DNA of 64,000 nucleotides from Candidatus Gottesmanbacteria bacterium (GTDB lineage Bacteria > Patescibacteriota > Microgenomatia > UBA10105 > UBA927), in the NCBI GenBank assembly GCA_023245335.1, contig JAHFKK010000001.1:363282-427281 (forward strand), written 5' to 3'. Numbering within the stretch: the stretch's first letter is position 1; every line of letters begins with the position of its first letter. The notes under the pieces are model-generated. The model saw nothing but the letters and a program-made list of their open reading frames with translations, had not been told where the DNA came from and made no database searches. Both the position numbers and the translations under genes were made by a program. Below, in pieces: positions 2,110-58,557 of the stretch.

Positions 2110-2113
2110 AATA

Positions 2114-2665: not shown

Positions 2666-2728
2666 GAGTTCAGTATAGCAAGGGAGGCAAGATGAATAAA
2701 GCGTTGAACGCTCTTTTCCCAAAAGGCT

Positions 2729-2965: not shown

Positions 2966-3029
2966 GAGGTGAAGTATACCCCAGTTGACTCTTTCGGGTC
3001 AAGACGTTGCGATTTATAATAGGGAAGTT

Positions 3030-10494: not shown

Positions 10495-10495
10495 T

Positions 10496-10927: not shown

Positions 10928-11762
10928 GAGATATCCAACATATATTGATGAGATTGTAACTCCCTACGACATCAGCCAAGCTCCCTTTATTGACGGGTGT
11001 TTTAACGTCGATGAAACAGATTGGCGTTTAGCCAATAGCCAACTAACTGATGGTTTAGACTGTGCTGATAAGTACACTCGATATACTAGTGGTAATGAAC
11101 AAAATTTTATATTCAAAGCAGCCGAAGAGTGTAGTGTGGAGCCCCTTTCTGATCCGTTCGCGTCATATATTGGTAATCGTTGGATGGGTATTCCCGTAGC
11201 GAGAAGTGCTCCTATGGTTTCTCGCATGAATAGTCGAAGATATTATCTCGGTGTTGTGTCGTACGCGACATCAATTACTACTCTCGCAGGCTGGGATTCC
11301 GGTATACCGCAGGATGGGTTAACTGAAATTGACACAACATACATGCAAGGTGATGGGGTTTTACGTGCGTGGCTTAGGGATCATGATCATGCATGGCGAC
11401 ACATTGTTACATGGACAGGGAGCGATGGCGTCATGCATTATTATTTCATTGACTACGGAAGGAGCTGTCTTGATTTGCGAACACAGTGGAATGAAACAAA
11501 ATTACTTAACGATTCTGTCGGTGGCTGTTTTTGGGATATTGAGCATGATCCAGATAAAATAATAGAATATGTCAAGTGCATTCTCCGTATACCCGACTGG
11601 TTGATTAACTATAAATTAATGCAGTATGCATCATCGATGCAAAAGTATGATGTTGTAAATAAAGAATTTTATCTTCGTCGGGCATATGAGATGTCATCAT
11701 ATTTAATCAAGAGTAAGCGTAATCTACTACATGATGTTAGTAATTTTCTTTCGGCTAGGTAA
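10899..11762 (+). CDS. Hypothetical protein; second gene of the AT-rich cassette between dnaK and dnaJ
   Basis: 287 aa ORF that overlaps the previous ORF by 29 nt and ends 2 nt before the dnaJ ATG. AT-rich. No family recognised. Rich in Trp/Tyr/Asp, with an HDHAWRH segment. Confidence 0.5.
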
Positions 11763-11764
11763 CT

Positions 11765-12676
11765 ATGGCAACGAAACGCGATTATTACGAAATATTGGGA
11801 GTCGGGAAATCGGCTTCTGCTGCGGAAATTAAGTCCGCGTACCGGAAGCTCGCGTTGCAATGGCACCCGGACCGAAATAAAGCCGTAGACGCCAACGAGA
11901 AATTCAAGGAAATAAACGAAGCCTACGCAGTACTTTCCGATAGCCAAAAGAAAAGCGCGTACGACCAGTTCGGCCATGCAGCATTTCAGCCGGGTGGCGG
12001 TATGGGTGGGGCAGGCGGAGGCAATCCTTTTAGCGGCGGGTTCCGCCAACAGGGACCATTCCAGTACTACTATTCTTCAGGCGGACAACAGGGCGGGTCG
12101 CCCTTCTCCGGGTTTGAGGATATGATCGATCCGTTTGAGATATTCGAGCAGTTTTTTGGTGGAGGATTTTCTCCCCGCGGCCAGCGCGCGCGGCCGCACC
12201 CCGCATACGAAGTCACGATCGATTTCATGGATGCGGTCAAAGGTGCCACGCGTGAAGTGCACGTCCCCAAAGGTGGTGCGGGTGAAGGATCCGTACGGAA
12301 AACGATCAAAATTCCGGCCGGGGTCGACAGCGGCTCACGCATACGATTCGATGAATTTGATCTCGTCGTATCGGTGCGTCCTGACAAGCGGTTTACCAGA
12401 GAGGGGGATGACATCATACTCACGGAAGAAGTTCCGTTCAGCCTCGCCGCCCTGGGTGGAGTCGTAGACGTCCCGACCATAGAAGAATCGGTCAAAATCC
12501 GAATTCAGCCAGGTACCCAGCCCGGGACACTCATCCGCCTTCGCGGCAAAGGCGTGCCGCACGTCCGGGGAACCGGCCGTGGGGATCAGTACGTACGGGT
12601 GCAGTTACGGGTGCCGAGTCATTTATCCCGCGAGCAAAAAGAACTCTTGGAGAAGCTGGAAAGAAGCGGGGTATGA
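11765..12676 (+). CDS. dnaJ: DnaJ-family co-chaperone (J domain plus G/F-rich region plus C-terminal domains, no zinc-finger insert)
   Basis: J domain DYYEILGV...HPDRN with the HPD motif. Gly/Phe-rich region. The protein has zero cysteines, so the CxxCxGxG zinc finger is absent. Confidence 0.85.
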
Positions 12677-12680
12677 GGAA

Positions 12681-12710
12681 TTGACGCAAGGCCGTTGAGG
12701 CTATATAATA
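12681..12710 (+). promoter_or_regulatory. Sigma70-like promoter TTGACG-18-TATAAT in the dnaJ-nusA spacer
   Basis: TTGACG at 12681..12686 and TATATAAT at 12703..12710. Confidence 0.5.
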
Positions 12711-12733
12711 GGTATATTGTGTAGGAAGTGAAA

Positions 12734-12755
12734 GGTGGGGTGACCCGCCTTTTTT
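12734..12755 (+). terminator. Intrinsic-terminator-like hairpin (GGUGGG-GUGA-CCCGCC) plus U6, lying between the promoter and nusA
   Basis: Stem 12734..12739 pairs with 12744..12749 (one G-U pair), followed by TTTTTT at 12750..12755. It could be a leader attenuator or the end of the dnaK operon transcript. Confidence 0.4.
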
Positions 12756-12779
12756 AATAATTTAAGGAGAAATCAAACT

Positions 12780-13934
12780 ATGCCAGCAACCGTCAGAAGC
12801 GAATTTGCATTAGCCCTCAACCAGGTCGCCACAGAACGTGGTATCGATCCTACAGTCGTACTCGAGACTATAAAAGCCGCGATTTTAGCCGCGTACCGCA
12901 AGGATTACGGCATAGATGAGACCCTCACGCTTACCGTCGACCTCAATCCTGATTCGGGAGAAGCCAAAGTCATGAAGGATGGCGCGGACGTCACGCCTCC
13001 CGGATTCGGCCGTATTGCCGCCCAGACCGCGAAACAGGTTATCTTGCAGCGTATCCGTGAAGCGGAAAAGTCTGCGGTTTTGGCTGATTATCAGGGGAAA
13101 ATCGGCGGTATTGCACCCGGTATGGTATTGCGTTTTGACGGCCCCAATGTGATCGTAGACATCGGTCGTACACAAGCGGTCATGCCGGTATCCGAGCAGA
13201 ATCCTGCGGAACGGTATCACCTCAATCAGCGTTTGACGTTTTACATCGAAGGAATTCGTGAGACCATGCGTGGTAATGAGATTATTGTGTCACGCGCACA
13301 CAAGGGATTGGTAGAAGGACTGTTTAAACGCGAAGTTCCGGAAGTATCCCAGGGGTCAGTCGAGCTTCGGGTTGTCGCCCGTGAGGCCGGTAACCGTACG
13401 AAAGTCGCAGTCTATTCCAACGCTCCCGGTGTTGACCCTGTAGGAAGCTGTGTCGGACAAAAAGGGGTGCGGGTTCAGGCAGTCATAAACGAACTCGGCA
13501 GTAACGAAAAAGTCGATATCATCCAGTGGAGTGAAGACACCAAACAGTTTATCATGGCGTCACTTGCGCCAGCCAAGGACATTGATGTCACCCTGGACGA
13601 GAAAAAACAGGCTGCGGAAGTCATGGTTCCGGACGATCAACTGTCCCTTGCCATAGGCCGTGACGGCGGAAACGTGCGGTTGGCTGCCAAACTGACCGGC
13701 TGGAAGATCGATATCAAAGGGAAGCCCGTACCAGGAGCCGAAAAGAAAGAAGATGCGGTAGTTCCTGCGGAGGCTCCGAAAAAAGAAGCTAAAGCGGAAG
13801 AAGCGCCGAAAGAGAAAGAAGTAAAAACACCGGAAACGCCTCCTCAAGGGAAGGCGGAAGAGCCGGCTCCTATAGTAAAACCCGAAGAATCTACCAGTAA
13901 AGACTCGACTGATACGAAACCAACATCCGTATGA
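12780..13934 (+). CDS. nusA: Transcription termination/antitermination factor NusA with Lys/Glu/Pro-rich C-terminal tail
   Basis: NusA N-terminal domain, S1 and KH regions (VGSCVGQKGVRVQAVINEL..., LAIGRDGGNVRLAAKLTGWKIDI). The C-terminal roughly 70 aa are a low-complexity KEAP-rich tail. Confidence 0.9.
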   Translation: MPATVRSEFALALNQVATERGIDPTVVLETIKAAILAAYRKDYGIDETLTLTVDLNPDSGEAKVMKDGADVTPPGFGRIAAQTAKQVILQRIREAEKSAVLADYQGKIGGIAPGMVLRFDGPNVIVDIGRTQAVMPVSEQNPAERYHLNQRLTFYIEGIRETMRGNEIIVSRAHKGLVEGLFKREVPEVSQGSVELRVVAREAGNRTKVAVYSNAPGVDPVGSCVGQKGVRVQAVINELGSNEKVDIIQWSEDTKQFIMASLAPAKDIDVTLDEKKQAAEVMVPDDQLSLAIGRDGGNVRLAAKLTGWKIDIKGKPVPGAEKKEDAVVPAEAPKKEAKAEEAPKEKEVKTPETPPQGKAEEPAPIVKPEESTSKDSTDTKPTSV

Positions 13935-13961
13935 GACGAGGAGTGTTTTTGACCGGAATGT

Positions 13962-15479
13962 ATGACGAAAGACACGAAATCAGTGAAGGTATCCTCACGT
14001 CCCTCCTCCGCCGAGGCTACGGCGGGCAGGCCGCCAGTGGTTGCGGTTTTGGGTCACGTTGACCACGGTAAAACCACTCTCCTAGACACGATTCGAAAAG
14101 CTCACGTTGCGGCAGGAGAACACGGAGGAATCACCCAGCATATCGGCGCGTACCAGATTGACTATAAAGGAAAAAATAAGGAATCCAGAAAGATTACCTT
14201 TATCGATACCCCCGGCCACGAAGCGTTTTCGAAAATTCGTTCCCGCGGAGCACAGGCGGCTGATATCGCAATCCTGGTCGTCGCGGCAGATGACAGCGTC
14301 AAACCACAGACTATCGAATCCATAGAGCAGATTAAAGCCGCGGGTATTCCGATGGTGGTTGCGATAAATAAAATTGACATGCCCGGCGCGATTATCGACA
14401 AAGTAAAATCGGATTTGGCCAAAGTCGGCGTGCAGGTAGAAGGATTCGGCGGTGATGTGCCGTTTGTGCCTATTTCCGCCAAAAAAGGCACGGGAATAGA
14501 TGCATTATTAGAACTTCTTTTCTTAGTCGCCGACATGAAAGGCCTGGCGGGGGACGCCAAAGAGCCGTTTTCCGCAATCGTCATTGAGGCCAAAGTGGAT
14601 AAATTCAGAGGCACCGTGGCGACCCTTCTCGTCAAAAACGGTACATTAGCCGGCGGAACGTCTCTCTATGAAGGACAAAAACTATTGGGCCGCGTTCGGG
14701 CCATGATGGACGAGTCCGGCGTCAAAGTGCCGGAAGCGCTCCCTGGAAAACCGGTTGAAGTGCTCGGATTTTCCATGTTGCCGTCTGTCGGTGCAGAACT
14801 CACCGCTGTCCCTAGGACAGTTGCGACCGTAGAAGTGAAAAAAACAGATGTCCGGGACACCAATGTCGCGGATTTCCTTGCAGCCATGACAAAAGCCGAC
14901 AAAAAGAGGCTCAAAATACTCCTAAAAGCAGATACGTCAGGTTCGCTTGAAGCCGTCAAAGAAGCGCTTCCCAAAGACGAGACCGATATCGTACGAAGCG
15001 GCCTGGGAGATATAACCGAGGCTGACATACTGGAGGCCAAAGCTACGGGAGCCGTGGTAGTCGGGTTTAACGTCAAAGCCGGCAATACCATAGAAAAATT
15101 TGCACGGGTAGAAAAGGTCATTTACAGAATCTATACGATCATTTATGAGCTTTTGGAAGAAATGGATGATGTCATAGACGGCATGGAAGATTTGCTTGCT
15201 ATGGAGCGCGAATTGGGGAAGGGTACAATTATTGCCGAATTTCCGTTTGACCACGACCGCATCGCAGGCACGAAAGTCCTCTCCGGCAGGCTCGCCAAGG
15301 GGGATAACGTACGGATTATGCGGGGCGAGGAGGAAGTTGCCCGTGTTCGCATCAAATCCATCCGACAGGGTAAAAACGATATGACCAAGGTGGAAACGGG
15401 TGTTGAGTGCGGTGTCCTCTTTGACAGAAAAGTTGATTTTACGCTCCAAGATGCTATAATAGCGTTTACTACAGGCTAA
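13962..15479 (+). CDS. infB: Translation initiation factor IF-2 (short form)
   Basis: GTPase G1 motif VVAVLGHVDHGKTTLLD, DTPGHEAF and NKID. Follows nusA. 505 aa, so the long N-terminal region is missing. Confidence 0.9.
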   Translation: MTKDTKSVKVSSRPSSAEATAGRPPVVAVLGHVDHGKTTLLDTIRKAHVAAGEHGGITQHIGAYQIDYKGKNKESRKITFIDTPGHEAFSKIRSRGAQAADIAILVVAADDSVKPQTIESIEQIKAAGIPMVVAINKIDMPGAIIDKVKSDLAKVGVQVEGFGGDVPFVPISAKKGTGIDALLELLFLVADMKGLAGDAKEPFSAIVIEAKVDKFRGTVATLLVKNGTLAGGTSLYEGQKLLGRVRAMMDESGVKVPEALPGKPVEVLGFSMLPSVGAELTAVPRTVATVEVKKTDVRDTNVADFLAAMTKADKKRLKILLKADTSGSLEAVKEALPKDETDIVRSGLGDITEADILEAKATGAVVVGFNVKAGNTIEKFARVEKVIYRIYTIIYELLEEMDDVIDGMEDLLAMERELGKGTIIAEFPFDHDRIAGTKVLSGRLAKGDNVRIMRGEEEVARVRIKSIRQGKNDMTKVETGVECGVLFDRKVDFTLQDAIIAFTTG

Positions 15480-47684: not shown

Positions 47685-47735
47685 TTGACATATGTTTTAA
47701 CATATGTTAATATATGAGTTGTACTTAACATATGG
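47685..47735 (+). promoter_or_regulatory. Promoter TTGACA-17-TAATAT interleaved with three ACATATG-core palindromic operator repeats
   Basis: TTGACATATGTT at 47685..47696, the perfect 14 bp palindrome TTAACATATGTTAA at 47697..47710, and TTAACATATGG at 47725..47735, which overlaps the ATG of the HTH gene. Confidence 0.6.
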
Positions 47736-47989
47736 ATACAAAACGGTATTTATCCACGACAGACGTAGCAAAGATTTTGGGCGTAAGCCGTATCACGGTG
47801 TTTCAGCGTGTCAAGAGCGGGAAAATTCATGCCGTAAAAGTCGGTCATTCTTATGTGATTGATCCCGCCGATATCGGTGTGGTGACGGGTCAAGCAGTTT
47901 CTCCAAAGCAAAAGTTGGTCATGAATCAGGCGGTCAAGAAAACCGTGGCCGAGTATGGAGATGCGCTCCGCTTACTCGGGAAGGAATAG
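47732..47989 (+). CDS. Excisionase/MerR-type HTH DNA-binding protein; putative antitoxin of Doc
   Basis: LSTTDVAKILGVSRITVFQRVKSGKIHAVKVG helix-turn-helix. Its stop is 5 nt before the Doc start. Confidence 0.6.
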   Translation: MDTKRYLSTTDVAKILGVSRITVFQRVKSGKIHAVKVGHSYVIDPADIGVVTGQAVSPKQKLVMNQAVKKTVAEYGDALRLLGKE

Positions 47990-47993
47990 ATTC

Positions 47994-48413
47994 ATGATAA
48001 CCAAACTCACCATAGATGAAGTGGAATACATTTCATTTACGCTCGCTAAGGAGCTCATGGGATGGAAGGAGCCGATTCCGGATTTCCATACGCGTTTCCC
48101 CAACATATTAGAAAGCAGTCTTCGTGTCCCTTTTCAGACGTTTGACGGCAAAAATCTTTATAAGGGCCTCATCGACAAAGCGGCGATTCTTTTCTATCTC
48201 ATGATCAAAAATCATCCGTTCAAAAACGGGAATAAGCGGATCGCGATGACGACACTGTTTGTATTTCTCTACGTGAACGGTAAATGGCTCAAGGTGGACA
48301 ATCGGGAACTGTATACGTTTGCCGTGTGGGTGGCGGAAAGTAATGCGATGTTTCAGGAGGGAGTGGTGACGTCTATCCGTAAATTTTTGACTACCTACCT
48401 CGTTGAGCGATGA
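47994..48413 (+). CDS. doc: Fic/Doc-family toxin (death-on-curing)
   Basis: Fic/Doc motif HPFKNGNKR (consensus HxFx(D/N)GNKR) within a roughly 140 aa protein. Confidence 0.75.
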   Translation: MITKLTIDEVEYISFTLAKELMGWKEPIPDFHTRFPNILESSLRVPFQTFDGKNLYKGLIDKAAILFYLMIKNHPFKNGNKRIAMTTLFVFLYVNGKWLKVDNRELYTFAVWVAESNAMFQEGVVTSIRKFLTTYLVER

Positions 48414-48423
48414 TTGCCGTGAT

Positions 48424-48666
48424 CTATAAGGGGAGTACGCGTTGGGCAGTCGAGACCGGTGGAGCTTTCTTCACTTTTTCTTTTGCCTCTATAGATTCCG
48501 ATACCATGAGTTCCAAAAGATCGCTTCGGAGAATGGCGTATATCCCGTGTCCTCCCGCAGAAAGATGTCGGGCTTTCAGCATTTTGTGTTCTATCCACCG
48601 GCGGATCGTATCCGGATGTTTGTGGAGAAACCGGGCAGCTTCTTCGACGGTAACGATATCATTCAT
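48424..48666 (-). CDS. Excisionase-family HTH DNA-binding protein
   Basis: VTVEEAARFLHKHPDTIRRWIEHKML, a classic excisionase-type HTH. Convergent with doc. Confidence 0.55.
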   Translation of the reverse strand: MNDIVTVEEAARFLHKHPDTIRRWIEHKMLKARHLSAGGHGIYAILRSDLLELMVSESIEAKEKVKKAPPVSTAQRVLPL

Positions 48667-48806
48667 TGTGACGACCTAGAGTATAGCACAGTGTGCAAGA
48701 GACGGAAGACTTTGTATTGATATTGTAATCTATCTCATCGACAAACCGGCGGTGACGCGCCACTATGACGATGCCGATGAATTTCGGCGCGAAGGGAGGT
48801 AATGGT

Positions 48807-49463
48807 ATGAAAACCCCATTCCTTATTGTAGCCGGAGTCATTCTGATAGGCGTCGGCGCAGTGCTTGTTACGAGAAAGGCGCCATCGCCGCCGCCCCCAA
48901 CTCATGAGACCGTATCTACAAGTCCGACCACAGCAACCGCAACAACCGGAACCTGTAAAGAGGAAAACGTTTCCCTCCCGAACTACTCCGATCCGGGCAA
49001 GCGCCTCCGTAACTGTTTCGTCCAGTATCCCGGTGAACCGAGCCGACAGGACAAAAGTTATTACATCGTGGAGGACACCTGTGGACAGTTTACCCAGGCA
49101 TTTATGGAAGGCACCCTGGGAGGGAAGATTACCCATGTAGCGCCGCCCCAAATCGCAGGGATTAATGACTGCAGTTATTATCTCACCGACAAAGAATACG
49201 TCATGCTCAATCTGGATTATCTGTCCGTCGCCAATCAGAAGACAGGCAATGAGGCTATGGGACGAAAGGTAGAAAAGGCTTCGGGCATACCTATGGATAA
49301 CATGGTCGTGTACCAGGAGGACGGAGCGATCAACGTCATCTATCTCATCCTGGGGCCTGAGAAGTTCTTGTCCCTGCGTCCGAGATCAAAAGCGACGATA
49401 CCGAATGATCGCTTCCTCACCTGGGCGGCAAACATAGGAAGTGCGATCAAGAGCTACAAATAA
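48807..49463 (+). CDS. Hypothetical membrane-anchored extracellular protein
   Basis: RBS GAAGGGAGG. N-terminal TM (FLIVAGVILIGVGAVLV), a PT-rich linker and a Cys-containing ectodomain. Confidence 0.45.
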   Translation: MKTPFLIVAGVILIGVGAVLVTRKAPSPPPPTHETVSTSPTTATATTGTCKEENVSLPNYSDPGKRLRNCFVQYPGEPSRQDKSYYIVEDTCGQFTQAFMEGTLGGKITHVAPPQIAGINDCSYYLTDKEYVMLNLDYLSVANQKTGNEAMGRKVEKASGIPMDNMVVYQEDGAINVIYLILGPEKFLSLRPRSKATIPNDRFLTWAANIGSAIKSYK

Positions 49464-49471
49464 GCTCACGG

Positions 49472-50341
49472 TCAGATTTTGAACCGCTCGACGAAAAACA
49501 TCGATCCCACGATGACGGCTCCACCGAGGAGCTGGTACACATCCAGCCGCTCATGGAGTAAAGGGTACGACAGGATGGTGACAAAGACAGGGGTGAGCGA
49601 CACAATCATCGTCACAAATGAGGCGGTCGCATGTTTGTACGCCCGGTTCCGTACCATCGTGATGCCAAGCGACAGGGCGCTCCCCAGTATGATAAACGGT
49701 ATGTGTCCGGATACCCGCAGAGCGCCAATTCCGACGGCAAAGATAAAAAGGGCGACAGAAGAAACGATAGATATGGCCGCCCCGCTTATGTCCGGATGCA
49801 TCCGGGAGATTGTGTGCTTTATGAGGATGTTGGAAATGAATGCGGCGGACAGTGCGTATACCAGGGTATAGATATCTCCGGTCGTGAGATGTATGCCTTT
49901 CCCGTTGGTTGTGAGTAAGAATGAGCCGAAAAGGATGAGTCCCGCGAGTATCCACTTTTTCACGCTGATGGCTTCTTTGAAAAAGATATACGCGAGGATG
50001 ATAGTGAATACGACGATCGTACGATAGAGAAACGCGAAGTTTGCGGCGGGCGAGTGCAGGAGTGTAATCGACTGCAGGTAGTTGAGGCCCACTGAGGATA
50101 TGACCCCTATACCTACGAGATACCATTTGAATTTAGGCGAAAGCGCTTGGTATTCCTCTCTGTGTTTGCCGAGTATGTATATCCACGGCGGGATCATGAT
50201 GAGGCCGATCCAGACGGTAAGGTTGAGGGGATCCTCGCCTTTCAGAAGAAGATATCGGGTGTTTACGAGCGAGCACGCCCAAAGGAATGCGGTCGCCAGT
50301 GAAAATATAAGTCCCCTGCTCATTCCGGAAAATAACTTCAT
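49472..50341 (-). CDS. EamA/DMT-family transporter
   Basis: 10-TM protein with the duplicated EamA architecture. Start set at the internal Met MKLFSGMSRG. Confidence 0.7.
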   Translation of the reverse strand: MKLFSGMSRGLIFSLATAFLWACSLVNTRYLLLKGEDPLNLTVWIGLIMIPPWIYILGKHREEYQALSPKFKWYLVGIGVISSVGLNYLQSITLLHSPAANFAFLYRTIVVFTIILAYIFFKEAISVKKWILAGLILFGSFLLTTNGKGIHLTTGDIYTLVYALSAAFISNILIKHTISRMHPDISGAAISIVSSVALFIFAVGIGALRVSGHIPFIILGSALSLGITMVRNRAYKHATASFVTMIVSLTPVFVTILSYPLLHERLDVYQLLGGAVIVGSMFFVERFKI

Positions 50342-50518
50342 GTCTTTCGCATTATAGTACAAATATCCCGGTGCGTTCTGTCGGTCATTTCTACCGGTGA
50401 GCAGTATAATGGGACACATGGCGAAGAGTGGAGAAGTGGACGAGCTCCATGCAAAGGTAGTTTCGTATCTTCCTAAACCGGAGTTGACATTTCTCATAGA
50501 GTTTGTAATATATATCAC

Positions 50519-50995
50519 ATGGTTAAAAACATCGTTATTCTCGTTCTGGTTGTTCTTGCTGCAGGTGAAGGATACTTCCTCATGCATAAATCCAATGGTC
50601 CCATGGTACAGGGCGCAGAGCGCGAAAATGCGCAGCAGCCTCGTCCCAGCGGCGCTCCAAACAGGCCGCCGATCCTAGGTAAAGGCGATAAGCTTATGGG
50701 ATCGCCCTTAGAGAAATTTGCATTTAAGATCGCGCCAGGAGATATACCTCCTGAATCCCAAGCCAAACTCACCGGCTTTGCCGTGAAGTCGACGAAACTT
50801 GCTGACGGATCGGAGCAGGTCTCGCTCACGCCGAAAGATGCGGATGATCAGTTCCAACAGTATACCGTCAAACCCGGCCAAGTACTCTATTTCATAGAGA
50901 TGACGGGGTCAGATGATGTCGGCAGTCAGGATTTGGATAAGAACTATCGCGATGACTACGGCATGATCACCGACGCAAACGGCGTGATCCAGTAA
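50519..50995 (+). CDS. Hypothetical secreted protein
   Basis: N-terminal signal/TM (IVILVLVVLAAGEGYF). Promoter TTGACA-16-TAATAT upstream at about 50486..50513. Confidence 0.45.
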   Translation: MVKNIVILVLVVLAAGEGYFLMHKSNGPMVQGAERENAQQPRPSGAPNRPPILGKGDKLMGSPLEKFAFKIAPGDIPPESQAKLTGFAVKSTKLADGSEQVSLTPKDADDQFQQYTVKPGQVLYFIEMTGSDDVGSQDLDKNYRDDYGMITDANGVIQ

Positions 50996-51341
50996 CGTCA
51001 TCCCCCAAACCGTCCTCAACCTCCGATTTGGCAAATATACCCGTTTCAGGTATAATATTAGGCCTATAGGACAGCCTATGACAGGAAAATCATCATCAGC
51101 GAAGGAATCAGTCCCCAGTGTTCTCATCCTCCTTGGACGGACACCAGAAGGCATGGGGTCATTCCTTACGCGTGCCGCAGGAAGGACTGTGCCATTCGAT
51201 GTGGATTATCCACGACTCAAGGCACAACCAGATGTACAACCAGCAACCGGCGCGCGCGCTTCTATAGCCCGACGCGTGGCTGCGCTCAAAAGGGCATTTG
51301 GAATTTAAGTTTTTTTCATTGAGCACAATTTATCGATCTCT

Positions 51342-51704
51342 ATGCCATCAGTACAGAAATTACTACGTAGTGTGAAGCGGGCTAGGAACGAGCTGTTTCG
51401 CGAATCCAAAAATTTGCCTCCGGGTTATTGCGATTTTATAAATAGACCGGTGTCAGAATTCGCATCAGAGAGCCATATCTGGCGCAGTAACGAACCTGCA
51501 GAGATCGGTGATTATCCCTCTCATTTGGTTGCGTCCATCCATACACGCGGGAAGGGCGGTGTCATCATCCAATTCTCCGGAAGCAATAAGAAAGATAGAG
51601 GTATCGTGTTGGGAAGTGTTACCGACATCGAGAACAACGATGAAGTCGTCAAAGCTCTGGAAGAGAAAACCAGAAGGAGAGGATGGAAGTTAGAATTAGA
51701 ATAG
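51342..51704 (+). CDS. Hypothetical protein
   Basis: 120 aa ORF. A promoter TTGGCA-17-TATAAT at about 51030..51060 lies upstream of this cluster. No family recognised. Confidence 0.35.
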   Translation: MPSVQKLLRSVKRARNELFRESKNLPPGYCDFINRPVSEFASESHIWRSNEPAEIGDYPSHLVASIHTRGKGGVIIQFSGSNKKDRGIVLGSVTDIENNDEVVKALEEKTRRRGWKLELE

Positions 51705-51748
51705 GTTTCATTGTCCCGAGCGTGTAAAGTAAGACAGAAATTATTGGT

Positions 51749-52024
51749 ATGCCAATCATAGACGCCATTTCAGCCGAGAAATTAGCAGCGTTGCGAAAAA
51801 TTGGTTCGGATGTGGAAGCACGCAAGAAACAGGAAGCTGCAGATATCCAGCTGGCACTTAGTCTCGGCGAAGAACCCGGCAAACTTACGCACGATCAGCT
51901 TGAGACGTTATTAGATATACAAATGGGCGGAAAGGGAGACCATATCTCGCATCAGGTTATCAGGCGTAAGCTCTGGAAAGGCCATAAGTTCAGTTTCCGC
52001 ATGGCCGGACAGAAAACCAGGTAA
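51749..52024 (+). CDS. Hypothetical protein
   Basis: 91 aa ORF. No family recognised. Confidence 0.3.
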   Translation: MPIIDAISAEKLAALRKIGSDVEARKKQEAADIQLALSLGEEPGKLTHDQLETLLDIQMGGKGDHISHQVIRRKLWKGHKFSFRMAGQKTR

Positions 52025-52030
52025 GGGGAT

Positions 52031-52267
52031 TTAGCGGCCGACAGGATGCAATCGTGTACCCACGCCCCAGTTACGTAGCATCATTTTGGCGAATCGGGGG
52101 TCCAGCCATTCTGCCCTTCTTAGTATCCCCAGATCACGTCGGCCATTTTTATCTTCTATCGCGATCTCGACTTTGCCGGCGAAGCCGGGCTGGACGAGTA
52201 ACCGCGCCCGGTGTGTATTGCCGGATGCTTCATGTACCGTTGCAGTAAACCTTTTTTCGTCAAACAT
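52031..52267 (-). CDS. Hypothetical protein
   Basis: 78 aa ORF, convergent with the previous ORF. No family recognised. Confidence 0.3.
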   Translation of the reverse strand: MFDEKRFTATVHEASGNTHRARLLVQPGFAGKVEIAIEDKNGRRDLGILRRAEWLDPRFAKMMLRNWGVGTRLHPVGR

Positions 52268-52356
52268 ATGTCGTCGGCGGGCTGGTTGCGCCTATAGTAC
52301 CACAAGAAGCTATTTATGGAAAATATACGCAACATAGAGTGGTATAGTGGGATGGT

Positions 52357-52623
52357 ATGGCAAGACGCAGACTGACGTGGGATAGCGACGTCGTACTCAC
52401 GGTACGCATACGGAAATATCTCTGGCATGAGTTTGTACAGGACGTATGTATCGCGATATACGTGGTCTATATTCTATTGAATTCCTTGTCGAAACGGCTC
52501 TTCCATTGTCCCGTCCGGGAATCCTTGAAACGTTTACTCCACGGTATCAAATGGGCTTTCTGGATTTGGTTAGCTGGCGTATGGACCTACCTTCTTGTAG
52601 CCAGCGCCTTTGGTTGGCGCTAA
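52357..52623 (+). CDS. Hypothetical small membrane protein
   Basis: 88 aa with two hydrophobic helices. Confidence 0.3.
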   Translation: MARRRLTWDSDVVLTVRIRKYLWHEFVQDVCIAIYVVYILLNSLSKRLFHCPVRESLKRLLHGIKWAFWIWLAGVWTYLLVASAFGWR

Positions 52624-52665
52624 TAGTCGTGTAGACCTTGGAGGTAAAGAATAGAAAAGTTCAAT

Positions 52666-53421
52666 ATGGCTAAATTTATCGGAGGGACTAGTAAATATCT
52701 AATCCAGCAAAAATTTTATTACATGCTGGGAGGGTATCTTCTCATGATTTGTCTTGTGGTCGCGTTGCTGTGGTATTGGGTGTTTATACTCCATTTTGTC
52801 CACAATATTTGGGTTATTTTGACAGCTACGATAGTTTTTCTTATCGTTTACAAGGTCATTACTTACTTTGTTAATGACGGGATGAAGCACGAATTTGCTT
52901 TTGGTTATGGGATAACCGGTGAAGCAAAAGTAGCAGAGGAACTCAACCGTTTACCCGCCAGCTACACAGTTATTCAAGATGTGAAACTTTCAGATACAAA
53001 GACAAACATTGATTTTGTAGTCCTTGGCCCAAATGGAATATGGGCAGTTGAAGTAAAAAGTCACAAAGGCAATATCACTTATGATGGAAGCCGGTTGTTG
53101 AGATATGGCCGGCCACTCGAAAAGAATTTTATCGGTCAGTCACGTCTCGAGGCTACCGCGCTAACTGATTATCTTCAGTCACATATAGACCGTCACATAT
53201 ATGTTGATTCACTCCTCGTATTTTCAAGTCCAAAAGCGACCATGCGCTTTGGTGAGCACCCGATACAAGATGTGGTTATAATTGGTGCTTCATGGCTTAA
53301 CCGGCATATCCTTGAACATCAGTCGCAAATTAAGTTTACACCGCAGGATATCGACCAAATTGCACGTGTCCTGCAATTAGAAAAAATAGATGGTAGTAAA
53401 CCTGCAATGGGTGTAAAATAG
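52666..53421 (+). CDS. NERD (nuclease-related domain) protein with N-terminal TM helices
   Basis: Three N-terminal hydrophobic helices, then a NERD-like core (GEAKVAEELNRL...IDFVVLGPNGIWAVEVKSHKGNI). AT-rich. Confidence 0.65.
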   Translation: MAKFIGGTSKYLIQQKFYYMLGGYLLMICLVVALLWYWVFILHFVHNIWVILTATIVFLIVYKVITYFVNDGMKHEFAFGYGITGEAKVAEELNRLPASYTVIQDVKLSDTKTNIDFVVLGPNGIWAVEVKSHKGNITYDGSRLLRYGRPLEKNFIGQSRLEATALTDYLQSHIDRHIYVDSLLVFSSPKATMRFGEHPIQDVVIIGASWLNRHILEHQSQIKFTPQDIDQIARVLQLEKIDGSKPAMGVK

Positions 53422-53443
53422 GGCAGATCAGAACTATTTTTAT

Positions 53444-55075
53444 ATGCCACAGCTTACTTGGATCGGAAAAGATAAAGTCGAAAACCACGACAAGGACCTT
53501 CCTTTTCGAGTGCTGAAACCAAACAAAAAACTTTCAGTCGGTGAGGACGACAATCTTCTTATACAAGGTGACAATCTCGAAGCATTAAAAGCTTTAATGC
53601 CGTTTTACTACAATAAGATTAAGTGTATTTATATTGATCCACCATATAACACGGGAAACGAGAAGTGGGTTTATAACGACAAGGTAAATTCGGCCCGAAT
53701 TAAAAAATGGCTTCATTCCGTAGTAGGAACGGAAGATCTTGAACGTCACGATAAGTGGTTATGTATGATTTATCCTAGAATTAAACTTCTTAGGGATTTA
53801 TTAAAAGAAGACGGTGCTATTTTTGTTTCGATAGACGATAACGAAGTAGACAATCTTAGGCTTTTAATGGACGAAGTATTTGGGTCTAAAAACTTCGTAG
53901 CTATGATAATAGTTCAAATTAATCCAAGAGGAAGAACATTAGATAGATTTTTAGCTAAAACCCACGAGTATATTCTTCTTTATGCGAAAAATGCCGAACT
54001 CGATTCTTGTATAAATCTTATTCCTAAAGTAGGTCATTCTTTAGGAACATATAACAAAAAGGACGACAAAGGTATTTATAGAACACTTGAATTAAGAAAT
54101 CGGAACCCCGTTTTTAACCGCAAAAACCGACCTAATTTATATTACCCAATCTTTGTAAATCCTGTTGATTTTAAGATTTCTTTAACTAAAGACACCAAAC
54201 ACACAATTGAGGTTTTCCCCTTGAACAGCACAGGTGTTGAAGGGTGTTGGACTTGGGGAAAAGATAAAGTAGCACAAGAAATAGGTACTCTACTTGGCAA
54301 AAAGGTTTCTACCGGTGTATGGAGAATCTATAGAAAAGATTACCTTTACGACGATCAGGGAAATGAGTCATTAACTAAGGCAAAAGCACTTTGGACAGAA
54401 TCAGAATTTAATAATGAAAATGGGAAAGAGATTGTAAGGAAAATATTTGGTGGGAATTCGCCCTTTGACTATCCAAAATCGGTAGATCTGATTAAGCATT
54501 GTATCAAATTAGGATCTGGAAGTAGCGATATTATTATGGATTCTTTCGCCGGATCAGGTACCACAGGTCACGCAGTATTAGAATTAAATAAAGAAGATGG
54601 TGGTAAACGAAAGTTTATATTGGTCGAGCTTGAAGAGGAAATAGCTAAAAAAACAACCGCAGTTAGACTTCAAAAAGTAATCAAAGGATATAACGGAGCT
54701 ATGTATCCTAACGGGACAGGGCAAGGCTTCCAGTATTTAGATTTAAACGGAGAATTATTTGACAGAACAGGTATTATAAACAACGTAGTAAATTACGAAG
54801 ACCTAGCCTCTTATATTTACTTTACTGAAACAAAGTCATATTTAGATCTAGGAATAATCAGAAATTCCTATATAGGTAGTTTTGGTTCAAATAATTATTT
54901 CTTATTATTCAACGGTATAGGAAAGAATGTTTTAGACGAGAGGTTTTTAAAGTCAATTTCCAGATATGAAGGGAAAAAGGTTGTATTTGCCGATAAATGC
55001 CTATTAGACGACGATTATTGTGAAAAGCACAACATTGTCTTTAAACAAATTCCTTACGAATTAAAGAAATATTAA
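53444..55075 (+). CDS. mod: Type III restriction-modification methyltransferase (Mod), N6-adenine beta-class
   Basis: Motif IV IYIDPPYNTGN near the N-terminus and motif I DSFAGSGTTGHA near residue 365, the beta-class order. AT-rich. Directly followed by res. Confidence 0.85.
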   Translation: MPQLTWIGKDKVENHDKDLPFRVLKPNKKLSVGEDDNLLIQGDNLEALKALMPFYYNKIKCIYIDPPYNTGNEKWVYNDKVNSARIKKWLHSVVGTEDLERHDKWLCMIYPRIKLLRDLLKEDGAIFVSIDDNEVDNLRLLMDEVFGSKNFVAMIIVQINPRGRTLDRFLAKTHEYILLYAKNAELDSCINLIPKVGHSLGTYNKKDDKGIYRTLELRNRNPVFNRKNRPNLYYPIFVNPVDFKISLTKDTKHTIEVFPLNSTGVEGCWTWGKDKVAQEIGTLLGKKVSTGVWRIYRKDYLYDDQGNESLTKAKALWTESEFNNENGKEIVRKIFGGNSPFDYPKSVDLIKHCIKLGSGSSDIIMDSFAGSGTTGHAVLELNKEDGGKRKFILVELEEEIAKKTTAVRLQKVIKGYNGAMYPNGTGQGFQYLDLNGELFDRTGIINNVVNYEDLASYIYFTETKSYLDLGIIRNSYIGSFGSNNYFLLFNGIGKNVLDERFLKSISRYEGKKVVFADKCLLDDDYCEKHNIVFKQIPYELKKY

Positions 55076-55076
55076 T

Positions 55077-57389
55077 ATGTTAAATTTAAAAAAGTATCAA
55101 GCTAGAACATTACAAGAATTAGATGATTTTCTGGTTAATGCAAGTGCCTTAAAAGGTGGGCGCGGAATTAGAATAGCCTATCTAGATCAGGTAGGTGACG
55201 AAGAAAGGCATTACAAGCCAATAGAAAAGCTGGAGGAATCACCCTTTGTATGTATTAAAATTCCGACTGGCGGTGGAAAAACCTTAGTTGCCTGTCACGC
55301 ACTTCCAGTTATCCTCGATCGTTATTTAAAAGATAAAAATGGAAAAGGTCTTGTTATATGGTTTGTTCCTTCGGACGCTATCAGGTCCCAAACTCTAAAC
55401 AACCTTAAAGACAGAAACCATCCCTATCGTGAAGTATTAGATAGTAAGTTTGGAAATAACGTTAAAGTTTTAACGATTGAAGAAGCCTTATCTATATCAA
55501 AATCGGATATACAAAATAATCTATGTATCGTAGTTGCTAGTCTTTCAGCATTTAGACGAACAGATACATTGTGGTTAAAGGTTTTTCAGAATAACGGTTC
55601 TTTAATATCCCATTTTGAAAATCTTATTGAAGACAAAGACTTTTTTGAAAAAGACGAGGAAGGTGAAATCATTTATTCACTAGCAAATGTGATCAAAATG
55701 AACAATCCGCTTATAATAGTTGACGAAGGACATAATGCACAAACACTGTTATCATTTGAAATGCTTCAGAAGCTTAACCCCTCGTTTATTTTAGAATTTA
55801 CCGCTACACCAAGGGCAGAAAGCAATGTATTAGTTAAAGTTCTTGCTTCTGAATTAAAGGCAGAAAAGATGGTCAAGATTCCCATTTACTTAGATAACGT
55901 TACCCAATGGCAAGAAGCAATTCGTGATGGCGTTAAGCAACGTAATGATCTTGAAAAGCTAGCGGGAAAAGAAAAGCGATTAACAAAAGAATATATTCGT
56001 CCAGTCGCCCTACTTCAAGCAGAACAAGAAAAGGAAAACAACACAAAGATATATGTAGAAAAAATTAAACGGTTTTTACTGGAAGAACTTGAGATTCCAG
56101 AAGCACAAATTGCAATTAAGACCAGTAAGCAAGATCAGATTAAAGGAATTGACTTATTTAAATCGAACTGTCCGATACGCTACATAATTACCGTAAACGC
56201 CCTTAAAGAAGGCTGGGATTGTTCTTTTGCTTATGTTCTTATTTCTGTTGCTAATCTAGGCGCTACAATAGCCGTAGAACAGACAATGGGACGCATAATG
56301 CGTCTACCTAATGCCAAGGACAAAAAGTCGGTAGATCTTAACTATTCCTATATCTATACGTCTTCTGAAAGCTTTAACAGGGCTTCTAGCGCCATTATAA
56401 AGGGCTTAGAGCAAAACGGTTATTCAAGACAAGATCTTCGTAAAAATGAAGGAACGATCGTCCCAGAAAAAGAAGAATTCGATAAGTTTATCAAGGATAA
56501 AGATATTAAAGTTCCATTGTTGGGGATAAAAGGCAAAGGCGACGCTTTAGCTTTCAATAGAGATCTTATTGGTGAAGATTTCCGAATCTATGATCATTCC
56601 AAACCATTCGAAATCGATTTTCATAATGACCAGAATCAAAGAATTAAGATTGACATAGATAAAGAAAACGGCTTATATCGCATAACGCAGGGGAAACTTA
56701 GCCTAATCTTGTACCCGGAAGATTTTTCAATTGAAGAAGTAGGTAATTGGCTAAAACAGAATATCAGACATAATGTCGTTTCTTCCGACGAAATGTCTAA
56801 ATATATCGATTTGGTATTGGTTGAAGCTTCAAAGAAACATAAGATCGAAGAAATAAGCCTGAATAGGTTTCGACTTAAAGAATTGATCGGATTCGAAGTC
56901 TTAAAGATAATTACCGAATATGCCAAAAGTGTATTTGATAAGCTAATGTCTAAGAAGGCCCTTAACACCGATTCCGCTTACTTTACGCCGACAGAAAGTA
57001 TCTTTCTTTTAAGATTATCCGAAGAACACTTTCAGAAACACTTATTTGAACGGTCAGGTCATTTAAACGGCGAAGAAACAGATTTTGCTATGCGTTTAGA
57101 CACGCTAGATAATCTTATGTGGTGGTATAGGAATCGCGAAAAAGAAGACTTCTACCTTCAAGGGTGGAAACAGGGGAAGTTCTACCCCGATTTTATAGCC
57201 AAAACCAAAAGCGGAAAGTATTTACTAATTGAATATAAAGGTGAAGATAGACTTAGTAATGAAGATACTGGCTACAAGAAAGATCTGGGAAATTTATGGT
57301 CAAAGATTTCCGGAGGTAAACATAAGTTTTATTTAGTAAACAAAAGTAATTCAGACGAAATTCTTAAAGAAATCTCAAGAATTGCGTAG
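55077..57389 (+). CDS. res: Type III restriction endonuclease Res subunit (SF2 helicase plus C-terminal PD-(D/E)xK nuclease)
   Basis: Walker A IPTGGGKT, Walker B IIVDEGHNA, helicase motif VI-like QTMGRIMR, and a C-terminal YPDFIAKTKSGKYLLIEYKG (PD...ExK). Confidence 0.8.
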   Translation: MLNLKKYQARTLQELDDFLVNASALKGGRGIRIAYLDQVGDEERHYKPIEKLEESPFVCIKIPTGGGKTLVACHALPVILDRYLKDKNGKGLVIWFVPSDAIRSQTLNNLKDRNHPYREVLDSKFGNNVKVLTIEEALSISKSDIQNNLCIVVASLSAFRRTDTLWLKVFQNNGSLISHFENLIEDKDFFEKDEEGEIIYSLANVIKMNNPLIIVDEGHNAQTLLSFEMLQKLNPSFILEFTATPRAESNVLVKVLASELKAEKMVKIPIYLDNVTQWQEAIRDGVKQRNDLEKLAGKEKRLTKEYIRPVALLQAEQEKENNTKIYVEKIKRFLLEELEIPEAQIAIKTSKQDQIKGIDLFKSNCPIRYIITVNALKEGWDCSFAYVLISVANLGATIAVEQTMGRIMRLPNAKDKKSVDLNYSYIYTSSESFNRASSAIIKGLEQNGYSRQDLRKNEGTIVPEKEEFDKFIKDKDIKVPLLGIKGKGDALAFNRDLIGEDFRIYDHSKPFEIDFHNDQNQRIKIDIDKENGLYRITQGKLSLILYPEDFSIEEVGNWLKQNIRHNVVSSDEMSKYIDLVLVEASKKHKIEEISLNRFRLKELIGFEVLKIITEYAKSVFDKLMSKKALNTDSAYFTPTESIFLLRLSEEHFQKHLFERSGHLNGEETDFAMRLDTLDNLMWWYRNREKEDFYLQGWKQGKFYPDFIAKTKSGKYLLIEYKGEDRLSNEDTGYKKDLGNLWSKISGGKHKFYLVNKSNSDEILKEISRIA

Positions 57390-57391
57390 GT

Positions 57392-57847
57392 ATGAAAACC
57401 CCTTCATTTTTTCTTCCTGACCAAGACGGCAAGACACATTCTATGTCTGACTACCGAGGTAAATGGGTAGTGGTGTACTTCTACCCCAAAGACGATACGC
57501 CGGGGTGCACGAAGGAAGCATGCGGGTTCCGGGATTTCGGCGCTGACTTTGCCAAACGGGGAGTCGTGATACTTGGGATATCCAAAGACAGTGTGGAGTC
57601 CCACAAAAAGTTTGCGGACAAATACAAGCTCACTTTCCCGCTCCTTGCCGACGTCGACCACAAAGTGGCCGAAAGCTTTGGCGCGTGGGGAGTGAAGAAG
57701 TTTATGGGTCGAGAATTTACCGGAGTACTACGTAACACTTATATCATTAATCCCACGGGTGAAATCGTGAAGATGTATGAAGGCGTGAATCCCCTAGTGC
57801 ACGCGAAAGAAGTACTCGCGGACCTGCCGGGATTAATGAGCGTGTGA
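57392..57847 (+). CDS. bcp: Thiol peroxidase Bcp (peroxiredoxin)
   Basis: YFYPKDDTPGCTKEACGFRD carries the peroxidatic and resolving Cys motif. 151 aa. Confidence 0.85.
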   Translation: MKTPSFFLPDQDGKTHSMSDYRGKWVVVYFYPKDDTPGCTKEACGFRDFGADFAKRGVVILGISKDSVESHKKFADKYKLTFPLLADVDHKVAESFGAWGVKKFMGREFTGVLRNTYIINPTGEIVKMYEGVNPLVHAKEVLADLPGLMSV

Positions 57848-57911
57848 TGGTTGCCTCTCTACTTACCGAATTCTATATTCGGCGATCGGGTGGTATGATT
57901 ATGGTACGATT

Positions 57912-58154
57912 TTGTCTATGAAACTATTCCGTTACCGTAAGCCGTCTATGAACACGATCCTTGGAATTACCCGAGTGAAGCGATCCATACGGAAAGCAAC
58001 GGGAGTGAGTACCATCGAGCGATATACGAAGCCCAGCAGGATCAAACAATCCATCAAACAAAAGGTGGGTCTCTATAGTCCGACCATGACGGTTGTCCGC
58101 CAGACGTCCAAAGGGAAGCTGCCGTCGTTTTTTGGATTGTTTGGGAAAAAGTGA
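57912..58154 (+). CDS. Small basic hypothetical protein
   Basis: 80 aa, Lys/Arg-rich. Confidence 0.3.
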   Translation: MSMKLFRYRKPSMNTILGITRVKRSIRKATGVSTIERYTKPSRIKQSIKQKVGLYSPTMTVVRQTSKGKLPSFFGLFGKK

Positions 58155-58182
58155 TATAAACGTCTGGAAGATTCTTTAGCAT

Positions 58183-58557
58183 ATGGAAGCCACGTTAAAC
58201 CAGGAAACGAATAAGCCCAATCCTATTTCCCTCAAAGAATGGTTCCTCATGGATACCGACGAGCAGAAGGATTTTTTTGGTAATCTGTCTTTTCGGGAGA
58301 AGAATGATTTTATGATCGCCCAGAGTAATTATTACCAGGAACTGCCGAAGGCAGAAAAGCAGGCACTCATCCAGGCGAGGATAGATAAGCTGAGCGGGAA
58401 AAAAGACCAAACGCTTAAAGATAAAGCGGAATTAGGTGCCATGAAATCGGCACTCGGTCACGCGGAATCTCCGAAGCCTCCCAAGCCCGGCGGGGAAAAG
58501 GGAATCGTCGCGAAAATCAGAACAGTTTCCAGTCCCTACCTCATACGATCCGTCTGA
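58183..58557 (+). CDS. Hypothetical protein
   Basis: 124 aa, charged and helical. No family recognised. Confidence 0.35.
   Translation: MEATLNQETNKPNPISLKEWFLMDTDEQKDFFGNLSFREKNDFMIAQSNYYQELPKAEKQALIQARIDKLSGKKDQTLKDKAELGAMKSALGHAESPKPPKPGGEKGIVAKIRTVSSPYLIRSV

Follow-up and report, generated by a model that had tools for sequence, protein, structure and literature searches.

Within the 64,000-nt stretch of Candidatus Gottesmanbacteria DNA analysed here (the window), four co-oriented open reading frames (ORFs) on the plus strand at 52666-57847 encode a membrane protein with a NERD nuclease domain, a Type III DNA methyltransferase (Mod), its restriction subunit (Res) and the thiol peroxidase Bcp (Table 1). 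The explanation that we favour, with somewhat better than even confidence, is that the locus combines two evolutionary units: a horizontally acquired Type III mod-res pair, and a separately evolving NERD protein with two transmembrane (TM) helices (2TM-NERD) that most likely serves as an autonomous or back-up nuclease. Motif positions are given in amino acids of each protein, and L-numbers label comparison loci that hold homologues. The window comes from a ~1.2-Mb metagenomic contig, and the same locus was also seen on two shorter contigs, of 311 kb and 11.5 kb.

Mod matched the PADLOC model MTase_III (PDLC03644) end to end (1.4e-162; 541 of its 542 positions) and Pfam PF01555 (N6_N4_Mtase) at 5e-38, and in the PDB it matched the Mod proteins of Mbo45V (7dsu, 2e-59) and EcoP15I (4zcf_A, 7e-41). 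The order of its motifs, from DPPY through the target-recognition region (TRD) to FAGSGTT, is that of the beta class. Res matched REase_III (PDLC03650, 2e-94) and PF04851 (ResIII, 2e-15), although its best stretch against the 898-position REase_III model covers the helicase half alone (1-443 to 1-454). The helicase motifs GGGKT (65-69), DEGH (216-219), TATP (242-245) and QTMGRIMR (402-409), together with D705, E719 and K721 of the nuclease module, were invariant across an alignment of 20 Res-family sequences (A2). The C-terminus matched the NCBIfam endonuclease family restr_BPTD_3080 (1e-7), and the PD-(D/E)XK domain is supported at motif and profile level, with a pLDDT of 80-90 in this part of the AlphaFold2 (AF2) model. 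The Res model as a whole was moderate (pLDDT 66.7, pTM 0.40). Its top Foldseek match in the PDB was EcoP15I Res (4zcf_C, E 7.2e-7, prob 1.00), with TM-scores of 0.21-0.25 that are low because the model is only moderate. Searching the PDB by sequence, with phmmer from the single sequence and with the family profile, gave no meaningful match for Res and did not reach EcoP15I Res. Taken together, every Type III feature that can be assessed from sequence or structure was present, and on this basis mod-res is an intact Type III restriction-modification (R-M) pair and apparently functional. The identities proposed for all four genes in a preliminary description of the locus (membrane NERD, beta-class Type III Mod, SF2 helicase/PD-(D/E)XK Res, and bcp) were borne out by domain matches and motifs.

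The same description had pointed to the 770-aa Res as short. Its homologues fall into more than 100 clusters of 760-775 aa (47-91% identity), many of them with Patescibacteria names (including Daviesbacteria, Saccharimonadales and Nealsonbacteria), so the length is a conserved one and not an oddity. A census of 80 species-representative loci, covering 7 kb around Res, found Mod directly 5′ of Res in 78 of them. Here the closest clade alone has Res proteins of 767-809 aa, a clade that includes Levyibacteriota, Peribacteria, Peregrinibacteria and Omnitrophota, and more distant relatives measure 865-915 aa. Residues 1-455 align to these longer relatives at 40-44% identity, and the alignment shows the compact proteins to be without about 90-120 linker residues near positions 462-490. 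A decayed or truncated Res was rejected in view of the conserved family length, the loss confined to the linker and the invariant motifs; a check of mod and res for decay found both ORFs full-length for their families, with intact motifs. Mod and res contain no simple-sequence repeats (the region 51900-58300 holds only an 11-nt, 1.9-copy array 3′ of bcp), and a phase-variable mod (phasevarion) was rejected because mod has no repeat tract. The mod-res pair of the window is an ordinary member of a known, abundant compact-Res clade common in Patescibacteria.

Cassettes closely related to this pair were found in unrelated genomic contexts (L153/L154 and L155; Res 89% identical to that of the window at the amino acid level), one lying between CTP synthase/DUF1269 and ribosomal protein L19 and the other between serine-recombinase fragments. 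Neither bcp nor a 2TM-NERD gene is present beside the L153-L155 cassettes. The window Res also clusters at ≥90% identity with copies on other contigs. A blastn comparison of the window with L153/L155 found homology (75-78% nucleotide identity) only at 53442/3-53883/99 and 54526/7-57376/99. These limits correspond to the start codon of mod and the stop codon of res, and the break between them covers Mod residues 153-361, the TRD; NERD and the 22-nt NERD-mod spacer fall outside the homology. Because DNA homology is confined to the span from the mod ATG to the res stop, the alignments indicate that the mobile unit is mod-res, horizontally acquired and with shuffling of the TRD. Among the three cassettes, whose Res proteins are 89-94% identical, each has a different Mod TRD (window 53900-54525, L153 6914-7449, L155 6800-7447); between L153 and L155 the Mods are 61.5% identical and the Res proteins 94%. 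By sequence, the three swapped TRDs imply three different specificities.

The composition of the locus follows the same division. Per-gene GC was 0.405 for NERD, 0.346 for mod, 0.357 for res and 0.502 for bcp, with flanks at about 49-50%, and in sliding windows GC fell from ~0.50 to 0.41-0.42 over NERD and to 0.32-0.37 over mod/res before returning to ~0.50 within bcp. GC at third codon positions (GC3) was 0.377 in NERD, 0.300 in mod, 0.314 in res and 0.579 in bcp, compared with 0.55-0.66 in surrounding genes. The composition of NERD is thus intermediate between host and mod-res, and the GC of 33-38% first ascribed to all three genes applies to mod (34.6%) and res (35.7%) but not to NERD (40.5%). 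The picture of a single three-gene island did not survive the comparison, since homology spans only the mod ATG to the res stop and NERD is separate in composition and evolution. A foreign origin of mod-res is supported by its composition and by the occurrence of the same cassette in unrelated contexts. A search of the window found no tRNA; repeats, direct or inverted, were not found on either side of the island, and none of its genes encodes an integrase or a transposase. There were no relatives of NERD or Res among the viral contigs of IMG/VR and no NERD relatives among the plasmids of PLSDB, and carriage by phage or plasmid was rejected on these searches.

In L155, the block consisting of a 685-aa gene, mod, res and a 71-aa gene is flanked by an ORF with Recombinase and Zn_ribbon_recom domains (3199-4074) and an ORF with a Resolvase domain (10768-11166). 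The two ORFs could derive from one large serine recombinase that was split or rearranged, and they may be a clue to the mobility of the cassette.

At its right boundary the island meets bcp, identified by matches to AhpC-TSA (3e-42) and to NCBIfam PRK09437 (above its cut-off). The comparison of the bcp-upstream region in related genomes that the preliminary description had proposed was carried out. Orthologues of bcp in host relatives are 63-77% identical and are followed on the 3′ side by a syntenic series (a 138-aa gene, DUF192, a Zn-ribbon protein of 86-88% identity, a 233-aa gene, uracil-DNA glycosylase and TspO), while the gene on the 5′ side differs with each context: a beta-CASP RNase in L150/L151, a 281-aa gene in L149, a 333-aa gene in L148 and a 159-aa gene in L005. 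By these alignments, synteny breaks on the 5′ side of bcp. In the window, only the two letters 'gt' separate the res stop codon TAG (57387-57389) from the bcp ATG at 57392. The coordinates thus confirmed that three co-oriented genes lie flush against bcp with the res stop 2 nt before its ATG. As an operon-like junction this holds for the 2-nt spacing, but the arrangement is not special to the island: in three of the four relative contexts (L148, L149, L150/L151) the upstream gene also ends 2-3 nt before the ATG or overlaps it, the gap in L005 being 77 nt. Because relatives show the same junction, the flush res-bcp arrangement mimics an ancestral coupling of bcp to its upstream gene. A bcp truncated by the insertion was rejected, as its N-terminus aligns with those of the orthologues and the junction of a stop, 2 or 3 nt and ATG is also found in relatives. 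Judging from these junctions, bcp of this clade seems to be translationally coupled to an upstream gene that varies between genomes, to be without a promoter of its own and to be expressed from the upstream gene, here a foreign restriction operon.

Spacers within the locus are short (22 nt between NERD and mod, 1 nt between mod and res, 2 nt between res and bcp), and no terminator-like sites were seen between the four genes, in scans whose promoter and terminator counts were at chance level. Because of this chance-level performance, we infer co-transcription from spacing alone; NERD, mod, res and bcp probably form one transcript.

Other features of the variable region around bcp were recorded. 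Between the conserved HTH_17 gene at 48424-48666 (minus strand) and bcp, the window has a stretch (48700-57391) to which nothing corresponds in the syntenic locus L005 (1850-4748). Among its contents are a gene of 232 aa, an EamA transporter gene and ORFs of 158, 120, 91, 78 and 88 aa without Pfam matches. L005 has its NERD-mod-res cassette 3′ of bcp, and the window has its own 5′ of bcp. In L150 the variable region 5′ of bcp (1-4597) encodes other defence-like proteins, namely a SLFN-type helicase, NYN, SNase and RhuM-Fic, which suggests that the bcp-upstream region is a hotspot for defence genes in this lineage.

By profile comparison the window's NERD protein is a true member of PF08378 (68.2 bits against a cut-off of 22.1), with residues 82-187 aligned to positions 2-111 of the 111 in the profile. 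Kyte-Doolittle windows above 1.6 identified hydrophobic segments at about residues 18-44 and 48-69, and AF2 placed helices at 10-43 and 48-93 with a pLDDT >90, this TM hairpin being the only confident part of the model. A profile built from the first 11 homologues and cut at E <= 1e-30 defined a 2TM-NERD family of 346 clusters (50% identity), almost all of 225-260 aa and full-length, and the two-TM pattern was seen in nearly all family loci. The catalytic residues E86, D116, E129 and K131 were invariant in an alignment of NERD homologues (A1); among 185 members, where conservation was 96-100%, E86 was retained in 182, D116 in 185, E129 in 177 (with D in 6 more) and K131 in 185. Lysine and arginine counts, averaged over 173 members, were 3.3 for the N-terminus, 0.4 for the inter-TM loop and 5.1 after the second TM helix. 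From this distribution both termini are predicted to be inside (N-in/C-in), which would put the nuclease domain on the cytoplasmic side. NERD is therefore predicted to be, and likely is, an active, membrane-bound, cytoplasm-facing nuclease.

We then considered which genes accompany this protein. Among the six closest 2TM-NERD homologues with readable flanks (≥40% identity), five lie immediately 5′ of a restriction system, co-oriented with it and at gaps of <=80 nt, and the partner systems are of several kinds (Table 1). Between the window, L004 and L005 the NERD proteins are 47-48% identical, the Mods only 29-35% identical, and the Res proteins cannot be aligned. The GC3 of NERD in the window, L004, L005 and L010 (0.38, 0.585, 0.40 and 0.52) was always above that of the downstream restriction genes (0.26-0.37), and in L004 and L010 it is host-like. 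Members of this NERD family thus lie repeatedly at the 5′ edge of restriction modules, and these modules belong to several types.

Approached from the side of the Res family, no such association was seen. With the window's NERD as phmmer query, 2TM-NERD relatives were found within 7 kb of Res in 0 of the 80 species-representative loci, a search that could miss divergent NERD domains; repeated with Pfam, it found no NERD domain among the 98 genes flanking mod-res pairs of the Res family. The commonest neighbours of these pairs were genes for Cro/C1-type helix-turn-helix (HTH) proteins. The proposed check of whether NERD homologues co-occur with Type III systems therefore gave a divided answer, with Type III partners in the window, L004 and L005 (and in reversed order in L012) and none in the Res-family loci. 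NERD as an accessory to Type III systems was not established, given these 80 loci and the linkage of 2TM-NERD to several restriction types.

The closest metagenomic homologue of the window's NERD (44% identity), in L010, is followed directly 3′, with a 1-nt overlap, by a two-gene system at 8753-15183. Its first gene encodes a 1096-aa phospholipase D (HKD) and SNF2 helicase protein that PADLOC describes as C3a139/DrmD-like, and its second a 1047-aa Eco57I/MmeI-like Type IIG-type methyltransferase with a TaqI_C domain. Both genes have a GC3 of 0.29-0.34, against 0.64-0.72 for the host.

One part of Res was also found on its own beside NERD genes. The Res nuclease module (residues 573-769, window 56793-57386) is 37% identical to a standalone 252-aa protein with an N-terminal UPF0758_N (RadC-like) domain (L006 1885-2643, also L007 and L008), whose gene directly precedes those for a 2TM-NERD protein and an Mrr-type endonuclease. 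L026/L027 and L053 hold more distant copies of this gene near NERD. The Res nuclease domain thus also circulates outside Res, as a gene of its own in the surroundings of NERD.

These results are consistent with a model in which the two units would act separately. Gene identities, intact motifs, the limits of the mobile unit, the TRD swap and the repeated occurrence of NERD beside restriction genes are direct observations; enzymatic activities, topology, co-transcription and a defence role of NERD are predictions. By analogy with EcoP15I, a Mod dimer would recognise a short asymmetric site and methylate one adenine per site with S-adenosylmethionine (SAM); Res, bound to Mod, would use ATP as a switch to slide along DNA, and its PD-(D/E)XK domain would cut once two such complexes, from unmethylated sites in inverse orientation, run into each other. 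NERD, tethered by its two-helix hairpin, would work on the cytoplasmic side of the membrane as a nuclease effector, either autonomous or in a back-up role, and not as an obligatory Type III subunit. Such a role fits two precedents. At the edges of Dnd modification systems there are standalone NERD restriction endonuclease (REase) genes for which a co-effector role has been proposed, and DndF-NERD fusions occur (PMC10853773), and SNIPE is a membrane-anchored, cytoplasm-facing GIY-YIG nuclease that cuts phage DNA during injection (PMC13190303).

Several observations weigh against this model. The NERD nuclease domain was modelled by AF2 with a pLDDT <60, and Foldseek against the PDB returned nothing at E <0.5, the top non-significant matches being Can2 and the RLE domain of R2. 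Promoter and terminator scans did no better than chance. Most of the ~50 non-redundant 2TM-NERD loci are without a recognisable defence neighbour, and several adjoin housekeeping genes such as those for PGK, NusB, SecY and GreA; because most loci lack defence neighbours, a defence role for the whole 2TM-NERD family is not established. Finally, in the sister cassettes L153-L155 the place 5′ of mod is taken by a different gene, of 685 aa and borderline in its likeness to NERD, which moves with mod-res and favours a tighter functional coupling than we assume. This gene has cassette-like GC, and its product is 94% identical between two unrelated genomic contexts. The protein scored 22.3 bits with Pfam NERD (cut-off 22.1) and contains the motif KTDIDVLAV...IIQAKSK, in which Q replaces the catalytic E; no TM segment was found in it, and an hhalign comparison with the 2TM-NERD profile was not significant.

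Such coupling would be expected if NERD, Mod and Res formed a true three-component Type III variant, an operon selected as a unit in which NERD would be, for instance, a second nuclease at the membrane that the R-M complex recruits or licenses, or a back-up effector set free on inhibition of the R-M system. The NERD-first layout with gaps of <=80 nt does recur with three unrelated Type III systems (window, L004, L005), the closest sister cassettes (Res 89-94% identical) hold the 685-aa gene at the same position, with its cassette-like GC and 94% conservation across two contexts, and NERD is fused in other methylation-based defences, namely PglW, MAD6 and DndF (PMC10853773). We nevertheless regard this as unlikely: 2TM-NERD was present in 0 of 80 Res-family loci and Pfam NERD in none of the 98 flanking genes, the same 2TM-NERD clade precedes an HKD-Snf2 protein with a IIG-like methyltransferase (MTase), a Type II REase and Mrr, the DNA homology of the cassettes ends at the mod ATG, and the Pfam match of the 685-aa protein is borderline, with its altered catalytic position and non-significant profile alignment.

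At the opposite extreme, 2TM-NERD would be a resident, non-defence membrane nuclease (acting on internalised DNA, or in repair) that merely sits beside a hotspot for low-GC restriction cassettes, its adjacency to them being meaningless. Patescibacteria are generally described as being without nucleotide biosynthesis and dependent on DNA uptake, a background that would suit such a nuclease, as would the NERD GC3 (host-like in L004 and L010, and always above that of the restriction genes), the different restriction partner in every locus, the size of the family (346 clusters, most members without a defence neighbour) and the synteny break point upstream of bcp. This seems to us quite improbable, because five of the six closest homologues are directly 5′ of a restriction system, far above random placement, and because the position of NERD is not conserved between syntenic relatives (3′ of bcp in L005, 5′ in the window). 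The domain is, moreover, predicted to be cytoplasmic, unlike the competence nucleases EndA and NucA, which face outward. A decayed or repurposed R-M module is hardly credible; in one such scenario an inactive short Res would leave Mod, as an orphan or phase-variable enzyme, to serve as an epigenetic regulator. The Res is indeed about 100-150 aa below the classical Type III length, and neither phmmer nor the family profile finds EcoP15I Res by sequence; yet both ORFs are full-length for the family with invariant helicase and nuclease catalytic residues, the lost residues are confined to the inter-domain linker, mod and res have no simple-sequence repeats, and the closest fold match is EcoP15I Res itself.

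Compared with known systems, the locus resembles EcoP15I/EcoP1I-type Type III systems (4ZCF) in having mod followed by res, a beta-class Mod, and a Res with an SF2 helicase and a C-terminal PD-(D/E)XK domain. In systems of this type, Mod2 binds an asymmetric site and hemi-methylates it, and Res is an ATP-triggered sliding clamp that cuts with its PD-(D/E)XK domain. EcoP15I Res has 970 aa; the window Res, at 770 aa, has a shortened helicase-nuclease linker and no detectable sequence similarity to it, and the window differs further in its co-oriented NERD gene 22 nt 5′. The closest characterised or modelled relatives are Mbo45V Mod (7DSU) and the models PDLC03644 and PDLC03650 for Mod and the helicase part of Res; with respect to PDLC03650, the window Res belongs to a compact clade dominated by Patescibacteria.

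The window's NERD matches the N-terminal NERD regions of MAD6 of the MADS system (4e-16) and PglW of BREX type 2/Pgl (6e-4), but only in that region, at 58.7 bits against an NCBIfam equivalog cut-off of 460 and at 17.6 bits against one of 990, respectively. It has 251 aa, a 2-TM hairpin and NERD alone, and its identification as a PglW/MAD6-type protein was rejected because it has no kinase domain and scores far below the cut-offs. Its partner, too, is a Type III R-M system, unlike the BREX, MADS or Dnd partners of the PglW, MAD6 and Dnd NERD proteins. With SNIPE it shares an N-terminal membrane anchor and a (here predicted) cytoplasm-facing nuclease, an architecture that would allow self and non-self to be told apart by location, but by analogy only: SNIPE has DUF4041, GIY-YIG and a single TM helix (PMC13190303), the window protein has a NERD (PD-(D/E)XK) domain and a 2-TM hairpin, and homology was rejected as there was no DUF4041 or GIY-YIG match. 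ZwsA (Zowangsin) is a NERD RNA endonuclease active against RNA phages in which E535/D567/E580/K582 were tested by mutagenesis (bioRxiv 10.64898/2026.04.06.716636). The spacing of these residues closely matches that of E86/D116/E129/K131, and the protein shows that NERD domains can act as stand-alone defence effectors; unlike the window's NERD, it is a large multidomain protein (VHS, DUF647, NERD, S4) that targets RNA, without a link to R-M and with no membrane anchor reported. PADLOC contains no system model pairing NERD with Type III components, and we found no literature on 2TM-NERD linked to R-M modules, in a search with subscription journals mostly outside its coverage, so that this is absence of evidence only.

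The mod-res pair in itself adds little, being one more Type III system of an abundant Patescibacteria compact-Res clade, but it illustrates two things cleanly: near-identical natural cassettes that have exchanged their TRDs, and a mobile unit of two genes whose ends can be placed exactly. A potentially useful lead is the recurrent NERD-first layout, in which non-orthologous NERD genes precede non-orthologous modules (Type III, Type II, HKD-Snf2 with a IIG-like MTase, Mrr). Defence islands often contain NERD domains, whose roles there are poorly defined. The 2TM-NERD protein, which is small, conserved, membrane-tethered and has an intact active site, is a tractable candidate for asking if the PD-(D/E)XK superfamily, too, has SNIPE-like nuclease defence at the membrane face and if such defence cooperates with R-M in ultra-small bacteria largely without CRISPR. 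While the restriction system is ordinary, the recurrent NERD-first accessory theme is possibly new, a modest but testable lead. A bolder proposal, which we consider speculative and doubtful, is that ATP-dependent restriction modules of Patescibacteria have dedicated partners in the 2TM-NERDs and in the 685-aa NERD-like proteins of the sister cassettes, which are not orthologous to them. NERD-first operons would then be a new three-component class, in which the membrane-face nuclease would attack entering DNA or act as a fail-safe when Mod-Res is inhibited, and the exchangeable R-M module would provide recognition of self through sequence and methylation.

Table 1. Features of the NERD-mod-res-bcp locus and of comparison loci. 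Positions are those of the window unless a comparison locus is named.
Feature	Position	Strand	Evidence or remark
Small hydrophobic protein gene, 88 aa	52357..52623	+	43 nt 5′ of NERD; GC3 0.56; no Pfam match
2TM-NERD gene, 251 aa	52666..53421	+	Pfam NERD PF08378, 68.2 bits, 1e-18
NERD N-terminal TM helical hairpin, aa 18-44 and 48-69	52717..52872	+	Kyte-Doolittle, AF2
NERD nuclease domain, aa 82-187	52909..53226	+	Catalytic E86, D116, E129, K131
mod, 543 aa, predicted Type III beta-class N6-adenine DNA methyltransferase	53444..55075	+	PADLOC MTase_III, PF01555
Mod motif IV DPPY, aa 65-68	53636..53647	+	Motif inspection
Mod target-recognition region, about aa 153-361	53900..54525	+	blastn break versus L153/L155
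Mod motif I FAGSGTT, aa 368-374, SAM-binding	54545..54565	+	Motif inspection, translation
res, 770 aa, compact Type III restriction subunit	55077..57389	+	PADLOC REase_III, PF04851
Res SF2 helicase/ATPase module, aa 1-455	55077..56441	+	GGGKT, DEGH, TATP, QTMGRIMR
Res C-terminal PD-(D/E)XK nuclease module, aa about 560-770	56754..57386	+	P704-D705...E719-Y-K721, nt 57186-57239
bcp, PrxQ-type thiol peroxidase, 151 aa, host gene at right boundary	57392..57847	+	AhpC-TSA, PRK09437
bcp junctions	Window 57387-57394; L150 6996-7003; L149 1278-1286; L148 4137-4167		
685-aa protein gene	L153 4330-6387; L155 4312-6369; L154 1454-3511		Travels with mod-res and 71-aa gene
NERD-first partners	Window, L004, L005		Type III, three Mod families
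NERD-first partner	L010		HKD+Snf2 helicase and Type IIG-like MTase
NERD-first partner	L152		Type II REase
More distant 2TM-NERD members	L006-8, L031		Flank Mrr
More distant 2TM-NERD member	L012		Type III pair 5′ of NERD

Small hydrophobic ORFs (81-116 aa, with host-like GC) were noted 5-43 nt 5′ of the four closest 2TM-NERD genes, at 52357-52623 in the window, 5236-5514 in L005, 1119-1364 in L004 and 7646-7996 in L010. Similarity among the four was weak (E about 1e-3, in a tiny database). A conserved family of small TM proteins 5′ of NERD was rejected, as a hidden Markov model of the four candidates retrieved its own seeds only and the pattern was seen in 6 of 34 loci; with low confidence, the 88-aa gene is a possible companion of NERD. 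About 4 kb 5′ of the island, at window 47732-48666, an overlapping HTH_17 (85 aa)/Fic (152 aa) pair is followed by a divergent HTH_17 gene (80 aa). These genes may be a Fic toxin-antitoxin-like or defence module, and SoFic-type proteins adjoin two other 2TM-NERD loci.

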